A stretch of DNA of 64,000 nt from positions 311,712 through 375,711 of the forward strand of contig JAKAEA010000001.1 of assembly GCA_021818465.1 (NCBI GenBank). Direction: 5' to 3'. This DNA is from a bacterium. Lineage in GTDB: Bacteria > Patescibacteriota > Minisyncoccia > Phycocordibacterales > JAKAEA01. Positions within the stretch are counted from its first letter, which is position 1. The number at the start of each line of letters is the position of its first letter. This document shows, one piece after another, positions 48,707-60,949 of the stretch. Under the pieces are notes generated by a model. That model was not told the DNA's origin, did no database searches, and worked only from the letters and a program-made list of their open reading frames with translations. Position numbers and translations under genes: made by a program.

Positions 48707-49336
48707 ATGGCTTACATTTTTTTGGATGAGAGTGGCGATTTGGGTTTTGGCAAAAAATCGTCAAAATGGTTTCTTTTTACGCTGGTAGTCGTCGATAATC
48801 CCCGAAAATTAGAGCGTCTTATTAAAAAGGTAAGAAAGACGATCAGAAAAAAATACAAGCATGTCCTATCGGAACTTCATGCTTATCACGCCGACGATGT
48901 CACTCGCATCCGTGTACTAAAGGCTATAGCTAAGCTTGATATTGCCGTTGTTACCACAATCCTCAATAAGCAAAAAGTCTATGTTGACCTGCAAAACCAG
49001 AAAAACTATCTTTACAACTACACCGCGAACATAATCCTTGATCGTTTAATGAATGCAACGTTGGTAGATGGCGCAAAGGAAATGTATCTTGTCGTTGATA
49101 GGAAAGATACCAAAAAGAATCTTCGCCAGAATTTTATCTCGTATATTTCAGAAGCCATGAACAAACGTAAAAGAGGCGGATTCAAAATGACTCTTGCCGC
49201 GTCTCACGACGAGAAAGGCCTGCAAGCGGTGGACTTCATTTCTTGGGCCATTTTTAGAAAATATGAGAAAGGAGACTGTGAGTTTTATGAGATTATTAAG
49301 TCCAAGATCGTGGACGAACGCTTGCTTTTCCCATAA
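48707..49336 (+). CDS. DUF3800 domain protein
   Basis: N-terminal IFLDESGD motif and overall DUF3800 pattern; sits at edge of RM/defence island. Confidence 0.6.
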   Translation: MAYIFLDESGDLGFGKKSSKWFLFTLVVVDNPRKLERLIKKVRKTIRKKYKHVLSELHAYHADDVTRIRVLKAIAKLDIAVVTTILNKQKVYVDLQNQKNYLYNYTANIILDRLMNATLVDGAKEMYLVVDRKDTKKNLRQNFISYISEAMNKRKRGGFKMTLAASHDEKGLQAVDFISWAIFRKYEKGDCEFYEIIKSKIVDERLLFP

Positions 49337-49342
49337 AAGAAA

Positions 49343-49390
49343 GCCCCCCGCTTTAACGGGACGCCATTCGGTATCCCAACGCGGGGGGAC
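49343..49390. terminator. Long GC hairpin (bidirectional terminator candidate)
   Basis: AGCCCCCCGC ... GCGGGGGGAC 9-10 bp GC stem with structured 28-nt loop between convergent genes. Confidence 0.4.
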
Positions 49391-49474
49391 TTACTTCTTA
49401 TAGATATAGACTAGCACGATAGGCTAATAATTACAAGCTTATCCACATCCAAAATTTGTTGCGAAGTAAAGGCT

Positions 49475-49972
49475 TTAACAGTCCAATTTTTCAATATCTT
49501 TCAAAATCTCGGCGGCGTGCGTCGCTGGGTCCACGTCTGGGTACACGGCAATGATTTTTCCAACGTCAGTACCACTCGCGGCAATTAGGTACGACACCCG
49601 GGCTGTCCCGCCGGCAAATGGTCCCGACTCGCGAATGGCCTCGTAGGCGCCAATAGTTTCTTTTCGCTCGTCGGAGAGCAAGGTAAAGGGCAAATGGTAC
49701 TTCTCGGCGAATTTTTTATGACTAGCCACCGAATCCTTAGACACGCCGAAGACCTTGATATCCGCCCGCTGGAAATCCTCATACCGCTCGGCAATCGTAC
49801 ACGCTTCCGTAGTGCACCCCGGCGTGTCATCCTTGGGATAGAAGTAGAGGAGGATAAATCGCGTCGGCGGAGTAGTCTGACTGGCGTTTTTTAAATGGTA
49901 CGCCAGCGTATGTTCCCGTCCATCTTGGTCGGGGAGGGAGAATTCTGGGGCTTGGGTGGTGATGTTGAGCAT
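49475..49972 (-). CDS. bcp: Peroxiredoxin (Bcp/thiol peroxidase, AhpC-TSA family)
   Basis: FYPKDDTPGCTTEA peroxidatic Cys motif; probable start MLNITTQAPEF (ORF 49475..50071). Confidence 0.8.
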   Translation of the reverse strand: MLNITTQAPEFSLPDQDGREHTLAYHLKNASQTTPPTRFILLYFYPKDDTPGCTTEACTIAERYEDFQRADIKVFGVSKDSVASHKKFAEKYHLPFTLLSDERKETIGAYEAIRESGPFAGGTARVSYLIAASGTDVGKIIAVYPDVDPATHAAEILKDIEKLDC

Positions 49973-50046
49973 ATCCTTATTATGACATATATGGAGATAA
50001 AATGTTTCTAAAATTTTTCTAAAGAAAAGTTGAAGAAAAGGTAAAA

Positions 50047-51654
50047 TTGTGGTTATATACTGGTATAACATTTCACTCTATGTCACGAGACGTAAGACTA
50101 AAAGTAAATAACCAAGACCACCGAAACAGTAATGGACGGCTGGAGAGTCAGCTCTTTTCTGCCGCTGACAAACTTCGTAAGAACATCGACGCCGCCGAGT
50201 ACAAGCACATTGTTCTCGGCCTTATTTTTTTGAAGTACATCTCCGACAGCTTCGAGGCGATGCACGCGAAGCTGTCCTCGGGCGAGGGTGAGTATGCAGG
50301 TGCCGACGCTGAAGACCCCGACGAATACCGCGCAGAGAACGTCTTCTGGGTGCCGCAGGAGGCGCGGTGGTCGTTCCTGCACGGCCGCGCGAAGCAGCCG
50401 TCTATCGGCAAAGACCTCGACGCCGCAATGGACGCCATCGAGAAGGCCAACCCCACCCTCAAAGGCATCCTGCCGAAGGTGTACGCGACACCGAACCTCG
50501 ATAAGCTCGCGCTCGGCTCACTCATCGACCTCATCGGCGACATCGCGCTTGGCGACGAAGCAGCGAAGTCGAAAGACATCCTCGGGCGCGTGTACGAATA
50601 CTTCCTCGGCCAGTTCGCCTCCGCCGAGGGCAAGAAAGGCGGCCAGTTCTATACCCCGCGCTCTATCGTCGAGCTGATGGTCGAGATGATAGAGCCGCAC
50701 AAAGGGCGCGTGTACGACCCTGCTTGCGGCTCGGGCGGTATGTTCGTGATGAGCGAGAAGTTCGTGCTCTCGCATCGCGGCCGCCTCGACGACATCTCCG
50801 TGTTCGGCCAGGAGAGCAACTACACCACCTATCGCCTCGCTCGCATGAACCTCGCCATCCGCGGCATCGACGGCTCGCAGGTCGAGTGGAACAGCGAGGG
50901 CTCATTCCTCAAAGACGCCCACCCCGACCTGAAGGCCGACTACATTCTCGCCAATCCTCCGTTCAATCAGGACGACTGGGGCTGGGACATCGTGAAGAAC
51001 GACCCGCGCTGGCAGTACGGCACGCCGCCTGCGGGCAACGCCAACTTTGGCTGGATGCAGCACATGATTTACCACCTCGCGCCGAAGGGCGTCATGGCGA
51101 TGGTACTGGCCAATGGCTCGCTCTCTTCGCAGTCGAGCGGCGAAGGCGAAATACGCAAGAACATCGTGGATGCAGATCTGGTGGATTGCATCGTCGCGCT
51201 TCCCAAGCAGCTTTTCTACAACACGGGCATCCCCGCATGCCTCTGGTTCATCTCGCGCAAGCGCCTCGGCAACGGCGACCGCAAGCGCACGGGCGAAGTG
51301 CTCTTTATCGACGCCTCGGAGATGGGACACTTGGTCGACCGCACGCACCGCGAGTTCACCGAGGAGGACGTGCAGAAAATCGCCCGCACCTATCACGAGT
51401 GGCGCAGCACAGATGGCAAGTATGAAGACGTGAAGGGATTCTCCAAGTCAGCGACGTTGCCCGAAATCCAAAAGCACAAGTACGTGCTCACGCCAGGCCG
51501 CTACGTCGGCGCGGCAGCCATCGCAGACGACGGCGAGCCATTTGCCGATAAGATGGCACGCCTCACCTCGACCCTGAAGTCGCAGATGGCCGAGGAGGAG
51601 CAGCTCAACGCCGAAATTGCGAAGCAGTTAAAAAAGGTTGGGTTTGGGATGTGA
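50047..51654 (+). CDS. hsdM: Type I restriction-modification system methyltransferase subunit
   Basis: HsdM N-domain ([29 protein letters not shown]), AdoMet motif [10 protein letters not shown], motif IV NPPFN; ~60% GC. Confidence 0.9.
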
Positions 51655-59781: not shown

Positions 59782-59786
59782 GGCCG

Positions 59787-60194
59787 GTGTTTATTTTTCA
59801 TCATCTTCGTTTGAGGCTTCGACGGCGCGCGATACGGCGGCCGAATGCTCGCGCTCGGGCTCATTTCTTGGCGCATAAGGAGCGGGCGCGGGAATTAGTA
59901 GCTCGGAAGATCCCCGAGCTTAATGCGCTGCCGGGCTATGGCTTTGCGGTCGGCCGCGTAGCGATACGAAATCAAAAAAGTCGCTGGGGAAGTTGCTCGG
60001 CCAGGGGGAATTTAAATTTTAATTATCGGGTGGCTTTCTTGCCGGAGCGGCTGGTGGATTACGTGGTGGTGCACGAGCTGTGCCATTTGCGGGAGCTTAA
60101 CCATTCAGCGGCGTTTTGGGCGCTGGTGGCGCAGGCGGTGCCGGATTGGCGGGTGAAGCGGCGGGAGTTGCGGATGATTGAGCGCTCTTTTTAG
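59787..60194 (+). CDS. YgjP-like (DUF45/WLM) metal-dependent hydrolase, short form
   Basis: HELCHLRELNHSAAFWALV (HExxH...NHS) C-terminal signature. Confidence 0.6.
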   Translation: MFIFHHLRLRLRRRAIRRPNARARAHFLAHKERARELVARKIPELNALPGYGFAVGRVAIRNQKSRWGSCSARGNLNFNYRVAFLPERLVDYVVVHELCHLRELNHSAAFWALVAQAVPDWRVKRRELRMIERSF

Positions 60195-60281
60195 TGCTTT
60201 TTGTTGTGTAGTAAAATCTTTTTCAAGAGTAATCCACAGCAACTCTGGCACGGCGATATATATTTGTTAGACTAGCGGCAT

Positions 60282-60632
60282 ATGAAAAATAATTTTAGAC
60301 AAAATAACGACGAGGAGTTTGCAGATGAAGAAGAAAACGAAAAGATCGGCACCGATGCTTCCGATGAGGCTGACGCGGACGATGCGGATGACGATGCGGA
60401 TGATGAAACTGATGCAGATGACGAGGATGGTGCAGATGACGAAGATTCCGCTGAAGATGATATGAGTGACGACGCTGCGGATGATGCTGAAGAAACCGAT
60501 GAAGAACTGGCCGAGCTCATGGAATCCTATGACTTGAGCGAAGAGGATGCCCAACGGGTAAAAAAACTGATTGATGAAGATGGTCTTGATGAGCGCGACG
60601 CGGTTGACATGATCGAAGAAAACTTGGATTAA
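60282..60632 (+). CDS. Highly acidic Asp/Glu-rich protein, family member 2 (116 aa)
   Basis: ~45% D/E with (DADD)n tract; C-terminal conserved helical motif shared with 59047 and 60677 genes. Confidence 0.5.
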   Translation: MKNNFRQNNDEEFADEEENEKIGTDASDEADADDADDDADDETDADDEDGADDEDSAEDDMSDDAADDAEETDEELAELMESYDLSEEDAQRVKKLIDEDGLDERDAVDMIEENLD

Positions 60633-60676
60633 AATTTTTCCTGTAAGTATTTGCACAGCGCGCCGTCATTGCCGCG

Positions 60677-60949
60677 GTGATAACCCATGATTTTAAAAAA
60701 GAAGATGCGCCGGTGTTGGCGGAACATATTCCTGATTACGACATTGATGCAGATGATGAAAGCCAGCAGCCCGCCGTGCGCGTAGAAGAAGATTTAAGCG
60801 CGGGTATTAGTGATCCCATTATTTTTGAACTGATGGATGCCTACGGCTTAGATGACGAGCAGGCCTTTGATGTGCGGACGATGATTGTCCGTTGGGGAAT
60901 TGATGAAGAAGAGGCGGTGGAACGGGTGCGCAACGCTTCACGTTTGTAA
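60677..60949 (+). CDS. Acidic protein, family member 3 (90 aa)
   Basis: ELMDAYGLDDEQAFDVRTMIVRWGIDEEEAVE motif homologous to other two. Confidence 0.45.
   Translation: MITHDFKKEDAPVLAEHIPDYDIDADDESQQPAVRVEEDLSAGISDPIIFELMDAYGLDDEQAFDVRTMIVRWGIDEEEAVERVRNASRL

Follow-up and report, generated by a model that had tools for sequence, protein, structure and literature searches.

Here, we report a conserved two-gene cassette, a zeta-like kinase gene followed immediately by a gene for a 65-amino-acid (aa) basic protein, on contig JAKAEA010000001.1 of a patescibacterial genome (GenBank assembly GCA_021818465.1; Patescibacteriota, Minisyncoccia, Phycocordibacterales, JAKAEA01). The stretch analysed, called the window below, comprises 64,000 nucleotides (nt; contig positions 311,712 to 375,711, forward strand). 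Comparative sequence evidence establishes the pair as a real, autonomous and mobile module, whose two genes are passed on together in Patescibacteria, Proteobacteria, prophages and a plasmid. Among toxin-antitoxin (TA) systems, zeta toxins are a textbook family. Patescibacteria are tiny-celled, with a biology that depends on host cells and DNA uptake, and to our knowledge their defence and addiction modules are poorly charted. The two genes are as follows.

58079-58783, forward strand: zeta/PezT-fold P-loop kinase, 234 aa, candidate toxin (Pfam Zeta_toxin, 2e-32).
58780-58977, forward strand: 65-aa basic helical partner, candidate antitoxin, with an ATGA overlap with the kinase gene (translational coupling).

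A preliminary description of this DNA, made from the letters and open reading frames (ORFs), had proposed two additional two-gene modules, one made of the kinase and its downstream ORF and one of a small transmembrane (TM) protein and a DUF2726 protein; the first is a conserved pair, and the second is not (0 of 80 loci; see below). Genome loci (n = 75) were taken via the kinase family alignment, a hidden Markov model (HMM) of the partner was built from them, and a further 105 loci were used as controls. The partner family follows the kinase in 74 of the 75 genome loci, in 19/19 viral contigs and in one of two further loci. An ORF of 50-66 aa begins at or near the kinase stop codon in essentially all 75 genome loci, and in 52 of 71 the two genes share precisely ATGA. 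The partner HMM matched directly after the kinase in every one of the viral (prophage-like) contigs, which were fetched independently, as well as on Shewanella plasmid pSA70-4; it matched once in the window (58780-58977) and in none of the 105 control loci. The two proteins diverge in parallel, with correlated pairwise identities (r = 0.85; Mantel p = 0.001). Among the examined loci, every intact kinase of this clade was accompanied by the small ORF, and in three loci (L054, L074 and L075) a frameshifted or truncated kinase stands beside an intact partner.

The ATGA overlaps that had been described for both pairs (at 57494 and 58780) were read directly from the sequence. Overlaps of 4 nt are common in the window and the genome (e.g., 46725/46728, 16711/16714 and 31350/31353) and are a property of this compact genome, so that an overlap alone is no proof of a functional pair.

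Flanking genes are not shared between loci of the pair, and its distribution is sporadic. On the prophage-like contig L160, it lies in the early/immunity region, between anti-repressor and CII/replication genes, and on pSA70-4 it is preceded by a gene for a DUF3596-domain protein and followed by a tyrosine-recombinase fragment (integrase-related). The prophage version had no match in Escherichia coli genomes and one partial match in cultured phages. No conserved family was found upstream of the kinase, and DUF2726, the upstream gene in the window, occurs in none of the 75 zeta loci. We also weighed a fixed third gene and dismissed it: Fic neighbours (4-5 loci) occur on either side at variable distance, and an acidic neighbour occurs in 3 of ~97 loci.

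The partner family (median length, 61 aa; median isoelectric point [pI], 9.8) shares a core of DFSxFF..S..EKxK....V.R.AN.DQR, in which the Gln is invariant and the Ala nearly so, and is predicted to form three helices. A single-sequence AlphaFold2 (AF2) model reached a predicted local distance difference test (pLDDT) score of 76, and Foldseek returned nothing below an E value of 4.8. A homology search with the 65-aa partner returned only itself; the family was recovered from the loci by the local HMM. A profile of 79 partners searched against PDB and Pfam gave chance matches alone (ferritin, KaiA and an insect allergen repeat) and no epsilon, PezA or Arc1. One subgroup of partners (L042, L043, L045, L052, L055 and L059) lacks the N-terminal segment and carries a Cys-rich tail (CCQFCDCK or CCQCCGCK), which could be a metal-binding or lipidation signal. 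We found no description of this downstream partner family in the searchable literature.

A search with the kinase returned 560 homologues (50-76% identity), most of them patescibacterial. Its AF2 model (pLDDT, 89.9) matched zeta (1gvn_B) and PezT (2p5t_B) best in Foldseek (E values of ~3e-9 to 6e-9; TM-scores of 0.66-0.70), followed by AvrRxo1 and gonococcal zeta1 (ng_zeta1). AvrRxo1 ranked 9th to 13th (E value, ~1e-6), behind zeta and PezT, and was not found by sequence profile. Across 30 sequences, G46, S47, G49-K52 and T53 of the Walker A motif (G46-T53) are invariant and P48 nearly so, and D71 and D73 (IDAD) are invariant; the two motifs align to GQSGAGKT and IDGD of PezT. The GTXR motif, which binds UDP-GlcNAc (UNAG) in zeta and PezT (PMC6362051), reads G116-T117-F-A119-Y120 (GTFAY) at the position that aligns to EGTLRT of PezT, with A119 and Y120 nearly invariant. 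Since the arginine of GTXR is replaced by Ala, UDP-GlcNAc is probably not the substrate of this kinase.

The cassette lies in a segment between two backbone genes, as follows.

45622-61726, no strand: variable segment (island) between topA and dprA.
43375-45564, reverse strand: topA, left backbone gene of the segment.
61727-62713, reverse strand: dprA, right backbone gene of the segment.

The whole gene set that had been read earlier as a defence island falls inside this gap, and that reading has three independent supports: the gap itself, a mosaic guanine-cytosine (GC) content and the recurrence of the gene families elsewhere in other combinations. The distance from topA to dprA is 16.1 kb in the window versus ~0.6 kb in relative L208, where gcrA alone lies between them (tblastn of L208 proteins; TopA, 64% identity; DprA, 44% identity). 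GC content within the segment ranges from 37 to 60% around a window mean of 46.8% (hsdM and hsdR, 60%; a gene for a 232-aa protein between hsdS and hsdR, 37.5%; DUF3800, 40%; kinase, 43%; partner, 38%).

The two nearest relatives of the kinase lie in loci L209 (71% identity) and L210 (67% identity). In L209, the kinase adjoins hsdS, an embedded OLD-family ATPase gene (3.5e-47) and hsdR, with a DUF3800 gene and a RecD/WYL helicase gene further downstream; in L210, it adjoins a restriction-modification (RM) system and a cyclic oligonucleotide-based antiphage signalling system (CBASS), of which the cyclase (3.6e-69) and a NucC effector (3.4e-74) were recognised. These neighbourhoods, RM with OLD and DUF3800 in one and RM with CBASS/NucC in the other, are a reason to regard the island reading as supported. 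Other loci combine the same families differently: the gene after DUF2726 encodes a homologue of the 232-aa protein in L129 (51% identity), is YgjP-like in L093 and is DUF3800-like in L136, and in L001, L009, L017 and L019 YgjP-like and TspO genes come after a zeta pair. Immediate neighbours of patescibacterial DUF2726 genes include integrases (6), ResIII (4) and SNase (4), and others are OLD/AriA/GajA-like ATPases, NERD, reverse transcriptase, ThsB-TIR and HigB; the neighbour censuses were made without a background control, and the enrichment of defence genes in them is thus qualitative only.

When the window was searched with PADLOC as a check on the island, the Type I RM system was recognised and no other defence system was matched. 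A cluster of at least two recognised defence systems was therefore not found, as the PADLOC HMMs match Type I RM alone within the window; PADLOC, NCBIfam and PHROGs gave weak noise at most for DUF3800, DUF2321, the 232-aa protein, the 52-aa TM protein (TM52), DUF2726, the kinase and the partner. This, and the placing of the island boundary from one comparator genome of moderate relatedness, weighs against the reading. The segment might instead be no island, but a lineage-specific run of unrelated genes that lie near the RM operon by coincidence. That would suit the single comparator, the recognition of RM alone, the presence of Bcp, TspO, short-chain dehydrogenase/reductase (SDR) and extracytoplasmic function (ECF) sigma factor genes within the same segment, and a segment with no integrase or transposase. 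It fits poorly with the adjacency of topA and dprA in L208 (only gcrA between), the GC mosaic across the segment, and the recurrence in different combinations of RM, DUF3800, the zeta pair, the YgjP-like gene, the 232-aa protein and DUF2726, and we consider it improbable. The sequence data instead support a variable, horizontally assembled island of defence and accessory genes of ~16 kb between topA and dprA.

In the left part of the segment (45667-47309, reverse strand), the gene for an ECF-type sigma factor overlaps that for a DUF5667 protein (probable anti-sigma factor) by 4 nt, followed by a gene for a PKD-domain secreted protein.

By analogy with known systems, we moderately favour a function of the cassette as a toxin-first TA or abortive-infection (Abi)-type module. 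The kinase and the ~60-aa protein would work as a toxin-first, type II-like toxin-antitoxin or Abi module, in which the kinase would phosphorylate an essential metabolite, probably not UDP-GlcNAc, and the small protein would neutralise the kinase by direct binding, as in the AvrRxo1:Arc1 pair. Several points weigh against this function. PADLOC holds no model for the kinase/partner pair. The partner is basic, unlike the acidic epsilon antitoxin, and the searches showed no resemblance to epsilon, PezA or Arc1, so that its putative antitoxin role is read from position alone. The decay cases are few, and frameshifts in metagenome-assembled genomes may be assembly errors. Finally, 50-76% identity across patescibacterial lineages also fits a beneficial, non-toxic enzyme.

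In a different reading, the pair would be non-toxic, the basic protein would serve to regulate or target the kinase or would be its phospho-acceptor substrate, and the role would be metabolic or stress related rather than one in addiction or defence. High sequence conservation across Patescibacteria would agree with this, as would the absence of the GTXR arginine that is needed for toxic UNAG phosphorylation, a basic partner unlike known antitoxins, and some housekeeping neighbours, such as aminoacyl-tRNA synthetase genes. A metabolic pair would be less expected to show a sporadic distribution and variable flanks, to reside in the early regions of prophages and on a plasmid, to have its nearest relatives within RM/CBASS/OLD islands, or to lose the kinase to decay while the partner is kept; we think it unlikely. 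A toxin-first TA or Abi-type module remains the explanation that we prefer. A wider reading is more doubtful, and we put it forward tentatively: the pair would represent an unrecognised, widespread toxin-first family, with hundreds of members in Patescibacteria and others in proteobacterial prophages and on a plasmid, that acts on a non-UDP-GlcNAc substrate in Abi or anti-phage defence and lodges by preference beside RM, CBASS and OLD systems. In this wider reading, acidic mini-proteins, which adjoin the pair sporadically, and TM52 could be accessory components.

Downstream of the cassette, the window encodes three acidic proteins and two further genes, as follows.

59047-59253, forward strand: acidic paralog 1, 68 aa, net charge -18.
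59299-59781, forward strand: TspO/MBR membrane protein (Pfam, 4e-47).
59787-60194, forward strand: short YgjP-like (HExxH) metallopeptidase (Pfam, 5e-36, C-terminal half only).
60282-60632, forward strand: acidic paralog 2, 116 aa, net charge -50.
60677-60949, forward strand: acidic paralog 3, 90 aa, net charge -17.

The acidic proteins had been described as three consecutive paralogs. Their paralogy was borne out by a common C-terminal tandem motif (ELMxxxGLDExxA; BLASTP, 4e-6 and 2e-4; pI, ~4.05), and their consecutive order was not, since the TspO and YgjP-like genes, both omitted from that description, lie in between. The acidic family is almost an orphan one, paralog 3 having one relative among 1.84e9 representatives. 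The short YgjP-like form (~135 aa) recurs beside zeta pairs (L001, L009, L017 and L019; 4/75 loci) and beside a DUF2726 gene (L093). Members of the acidic family of 47-48 aa are encoded directly upstream of the zeta-like kinase in L210 (7736-7882) and L015 (5831-5974), the classical position of an epsilon-like antitoxin; such a neighbour occurs in 3/~97 loci.

These acidic proteins bear on a further explanation, that the small basic protein is a nucleic-acid-binding autoregulator (omega-like) and that the kinase is controlled otherwise, e.g., by acidic mini-proteins upstream. A predicted helical partner with a pI of ~9.8 would suit such a role, and in L015 and L210 an acidic protein is indeed encoded just before the kinase, with one directly downstream of the pair in the window. 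Against it, the acidic neighbour is confined to the few loci just given, whereas the basic partner accompanies the kinase in almost every locus and diverges along with it. We give this explanation little chance and retain the basic partner as the candidate antitoxin.

The remaining genes of the set begin with DUF3800, Bcp and the Type I RM operon, as follows.

48707-49336, forward strand: DUF3800 protein (Pfam, 5e-18; no PADLOC match; GC content, 39.8%).
49475-50071, reverse strand: Bcp/AhpC-TSA peroxiredoxin (Pfam AhpC-TSA, 3e-31; likely start Met34, 49972).
50047-51654, forward strand: hsdM methyltransferase (N6_Mtase, 1e-109; PADLOC MTase_I, 5e-203; GenBank start, 50080).
51651-51992, forward strand: DUF2321 zinc-ribbon protein (Pfam, 2e-20), overlapping both hsd neighbours.
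51989-53155, forward strand: hsdS (Methylase_S, 8e-36; PADLOC Specificity_I, 3e-107); the ORF opens at 51896, with a probable ATG at 51989.
53158-53856, forward strand: 232-aa protein of no known family with N-terminal TM helices, between hsdS and hsdR.
53825-57064, forward strand: hsdR (T1RH-like_C, 5e-130; SWI2_SNF2; HSDR_N; PADLOC REase_I, E = 0); probable start at 53858.

All ORFs of the preliminary description were present where it had placed them, and profile searches of the window proteins found none of its domains misassigned (Pfam E values are given in the feature lines). GenBank gene calls omit DUF2321 and TM52. The five genes of the RM operon, hsdM-DUF2321-hsdS-[232 aa]-hsdR, are closely packed: hsdM and DUF2321 meet at GTGA and DUF2321 and hsdS at ATGA, 2 nt separate hsdS from the 232-aa ORF, and 1 nt lies between that ORF and the likely hsdR start (53858). 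No subunit gene is missing or truncated, as the Pfam and PADLOC matches of hsdM, hsdS and hsdR span whole profiles. The 232-aa protein had no Pfam, PADLOC or NCBIfam match and no match among plasmids or viral contigs. A link between DUF2321 and RM systems was sought on plasmids and not borne out there: plasmid homologues of DUF2321 occupy variable regions of mobile elements, not RM operons. DUF2321 and the low-GC gene for the 232-aa protein are foreign insertions in a complete Type I RM operon.

Accessory genes inside Type I RM loci are known, e.g., prrC between hsdS and hsdR. The window resembles these in that a complete hsdM-hsdS-hsdR operon carries extra genes between subunit genes, and in L209 an OLD-family ATPase gene occupies the same hsdS-hsdR slot as the 232-aa gene here. 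Unlike PrrC, RloC and OLD, the inserts in the window, DUF2321 and the 232-aa TM protein, are unrelated to those and have no PADLOC model.

The DUF3800 protein carries an N-terminal DE motif and a C-terminal QxxD motif; the family has an RNase H-like fold according to the literature, and 11 structured RNA motifs have been linked to its genes. The intergenic stretches that flank the DUF3800 gene (48457-48706 and 49337-49474) have predicted folds of greater stability than those of shuffled sequences (z = -3.0 and -3.9, respectively), and a GC-rich hairpin lies between the convergent DUF3800 and bcp genes. Rfam motifs DUF3800-I to DUF3800-XI gave no match at an E value of ≤1 in 48300-61000.

Between hsdR and the cassette lie the two genes of the second proposed module, as follows.

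57339-57497, forward strand: TM52, 52 aa with two TM helices, a real conserved gene that is not a conserved DUF2726 partner.
57494-58033, forward strand: membrane-anchored DUF2726 protein with a Vsr-like PD-(D/E)xK nuclease fold (Pfam, 1e-27).

DUF2726 is described in the literature as a Vsr-like PD-(D/E)xK domain of the restriction endonuclease fold, fused to Abi-type domains and found near mobile elements. The window protein agrees with DUF2726/Vsr-like nucleases in its Pfam match and in conserved acidic and His residues. The patescibacterial clade (353 homologues) consists of stand-alone proteins of 165-180 aa with an N-terminal TM anchor, a basic stretch after it, and D100, E116, D118, D119 and H122 invariant in the alignment. 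Unlike the described DUF2726 fusions, proteins of this clade are thus short, stand-alone and anchored in the membrane at the N terminus, without a fixed partner gene.

If TM52 and DUF2726 formed a second dedicated module, such as a membrane sensor and a nuclease effector, their ATGA overlap, a common promoter-like element, the membrane location of both proteins and the conservation of TM52 as a real gene would be accounted for. The earlier proposal that the two are kept together failed when DUF2726 loci were compared: a TM52 homologue occurs in 0/80 of them, and the upstream gene is highly variable. Nor is TM52 present with the closest relatives of the DUF2726 protein (63% and 56% identity). 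The one TM52 homologue found (L210, 9188-9346; 51% identity; same length) lies two genes downstream of a zeta pair, with no DUF2726 nearby. As 4-nt overlaps are also frequent in the genome, we regard a dedicated module as highly improbable. TM52 is co-transcribed with DUF2726 in a pairing that is local and not conserved.

In L210, the TM52 homologue sits within three tightly packed genes for small membrane proteins (68, 52 and 53 aa; 8977-9509) right after the zeta pair. A different 49-aa protein (MTKKPKQTLPEET...GKLIILKK), unrelated to TM52, overlaps the DUF2726 start by ATGA in L097 (2377-2526), L108 (3846-3995) and L111 (3675-3824) and could be a clade-specific DUF2726 partner.

Promoter-like elements precede TM52 and the kinase, as follows.

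57324-57332, forward strand: TGCTATACT, extended -10-like, 6 nt before the ATG of TM52.
58063-58071, forward strand: TGGTATACT, extended -10-like, 7 nt before the ATG of the zeta-like kinase.

The extended -10-like element just before the kinase ATG indicates that the zeta pair is a separate transcription unit. The sequence TGNTATACT occurs 7 times in the window versus 1.1 expected, and TGNTATACT or TATACT elements stand 6-12 nt before the starts of TM52, the kinase, TspO (59278-59286) and the SDR gene (61683-61698, reverse strand). Such spacing points to mRNAs with no leader, or a very short one, in this genome. A generic scan for sigma-70 promoters and terminators was uninformative, with fewer promoter matches than in shuffled controls. 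Elsewhere in the window, a low-GC stretch (11000-16000; 35-40% versus 47%) adjoins a tRNA gene (10715-10786) and encodes uncharacterised proteins with N-terminal zinc ribbons (12582-13334 and 13356-14450) and several ORFs without a Pfam match.

The RM system and the domain families of the island are already known, and the kinase, judged by its sequence, is a divergent member of the zeta superfamily. It shares with epsilon/zeta and PezAT the Pfam family (PF06414), the fold, the Walker A motif and the catalytic Asp, which takes a proton from the substrate. It differs from them in gene order and partner, since the antitoxin there is upstream and acidic, whereas here a basic protein is encoded downstream with no conserved upstream partner; in the GTXR motif, which reads GTFAY here; and in sequence (14-17% identity). 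A non-UNAG substrate has also been proposed for Rv0366c-Rv0367c, a non-canonical PezAT-like pair of Mycobacterium tuberculosis (PMC6362051). Unlike in the window pair, the partner there is upstream and ParD-like, and so both the gene order and the family are others. A 2023 survey of orphan PezT/zeta toxins sought partners among upstream genes only (PMC10532202); the conserved downstream partner reported here would explain one large "orphan" zeta clade. The missing GTXR arginine predicts a new substrate, and the pair offers a small, cloneable candidate, with well-defined predictions on toxicity and neutralisation, beside an RM operon with two uncharacterised embedded genes.

The closest analogue of the pair is AvrRxo1:Arc1 (AvrRxo1-ORF1:ORF2), known from Xanthomonas and its relatives. 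It is the only zeta-family TA system with a downstream antitoxin that has been validated by experiment, and its toxin gene is reported to be often inactivated beside an intact downstream gene (PMC4938570), the same pattern as in L054, L074 and L075. In both, a zeta-fold kinase gene is followed immediately by a small same-strand ORF for a helical protein, and the pair is mobile with differing flanks. AvrRxo1 is larger (378-421 aa) and type III secreted, unlike the window kinase, which comprises the kinase domain only (234 aa). The partners also differ: Arc1 (81-121 aa) carries KExFD...YExxYY, whereas the protein here (~60 aa) is basic, has a DFSxFF...ANxDQR core and shows no Arc1 motif in the alignment, and the 79-partner profile found no Arc1 chain in PDB at an E value of ≤10. 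The pair would add a compact form, reduced to the kinase domain, to the known cases of the AvrRxo1:Arc1 gene order.

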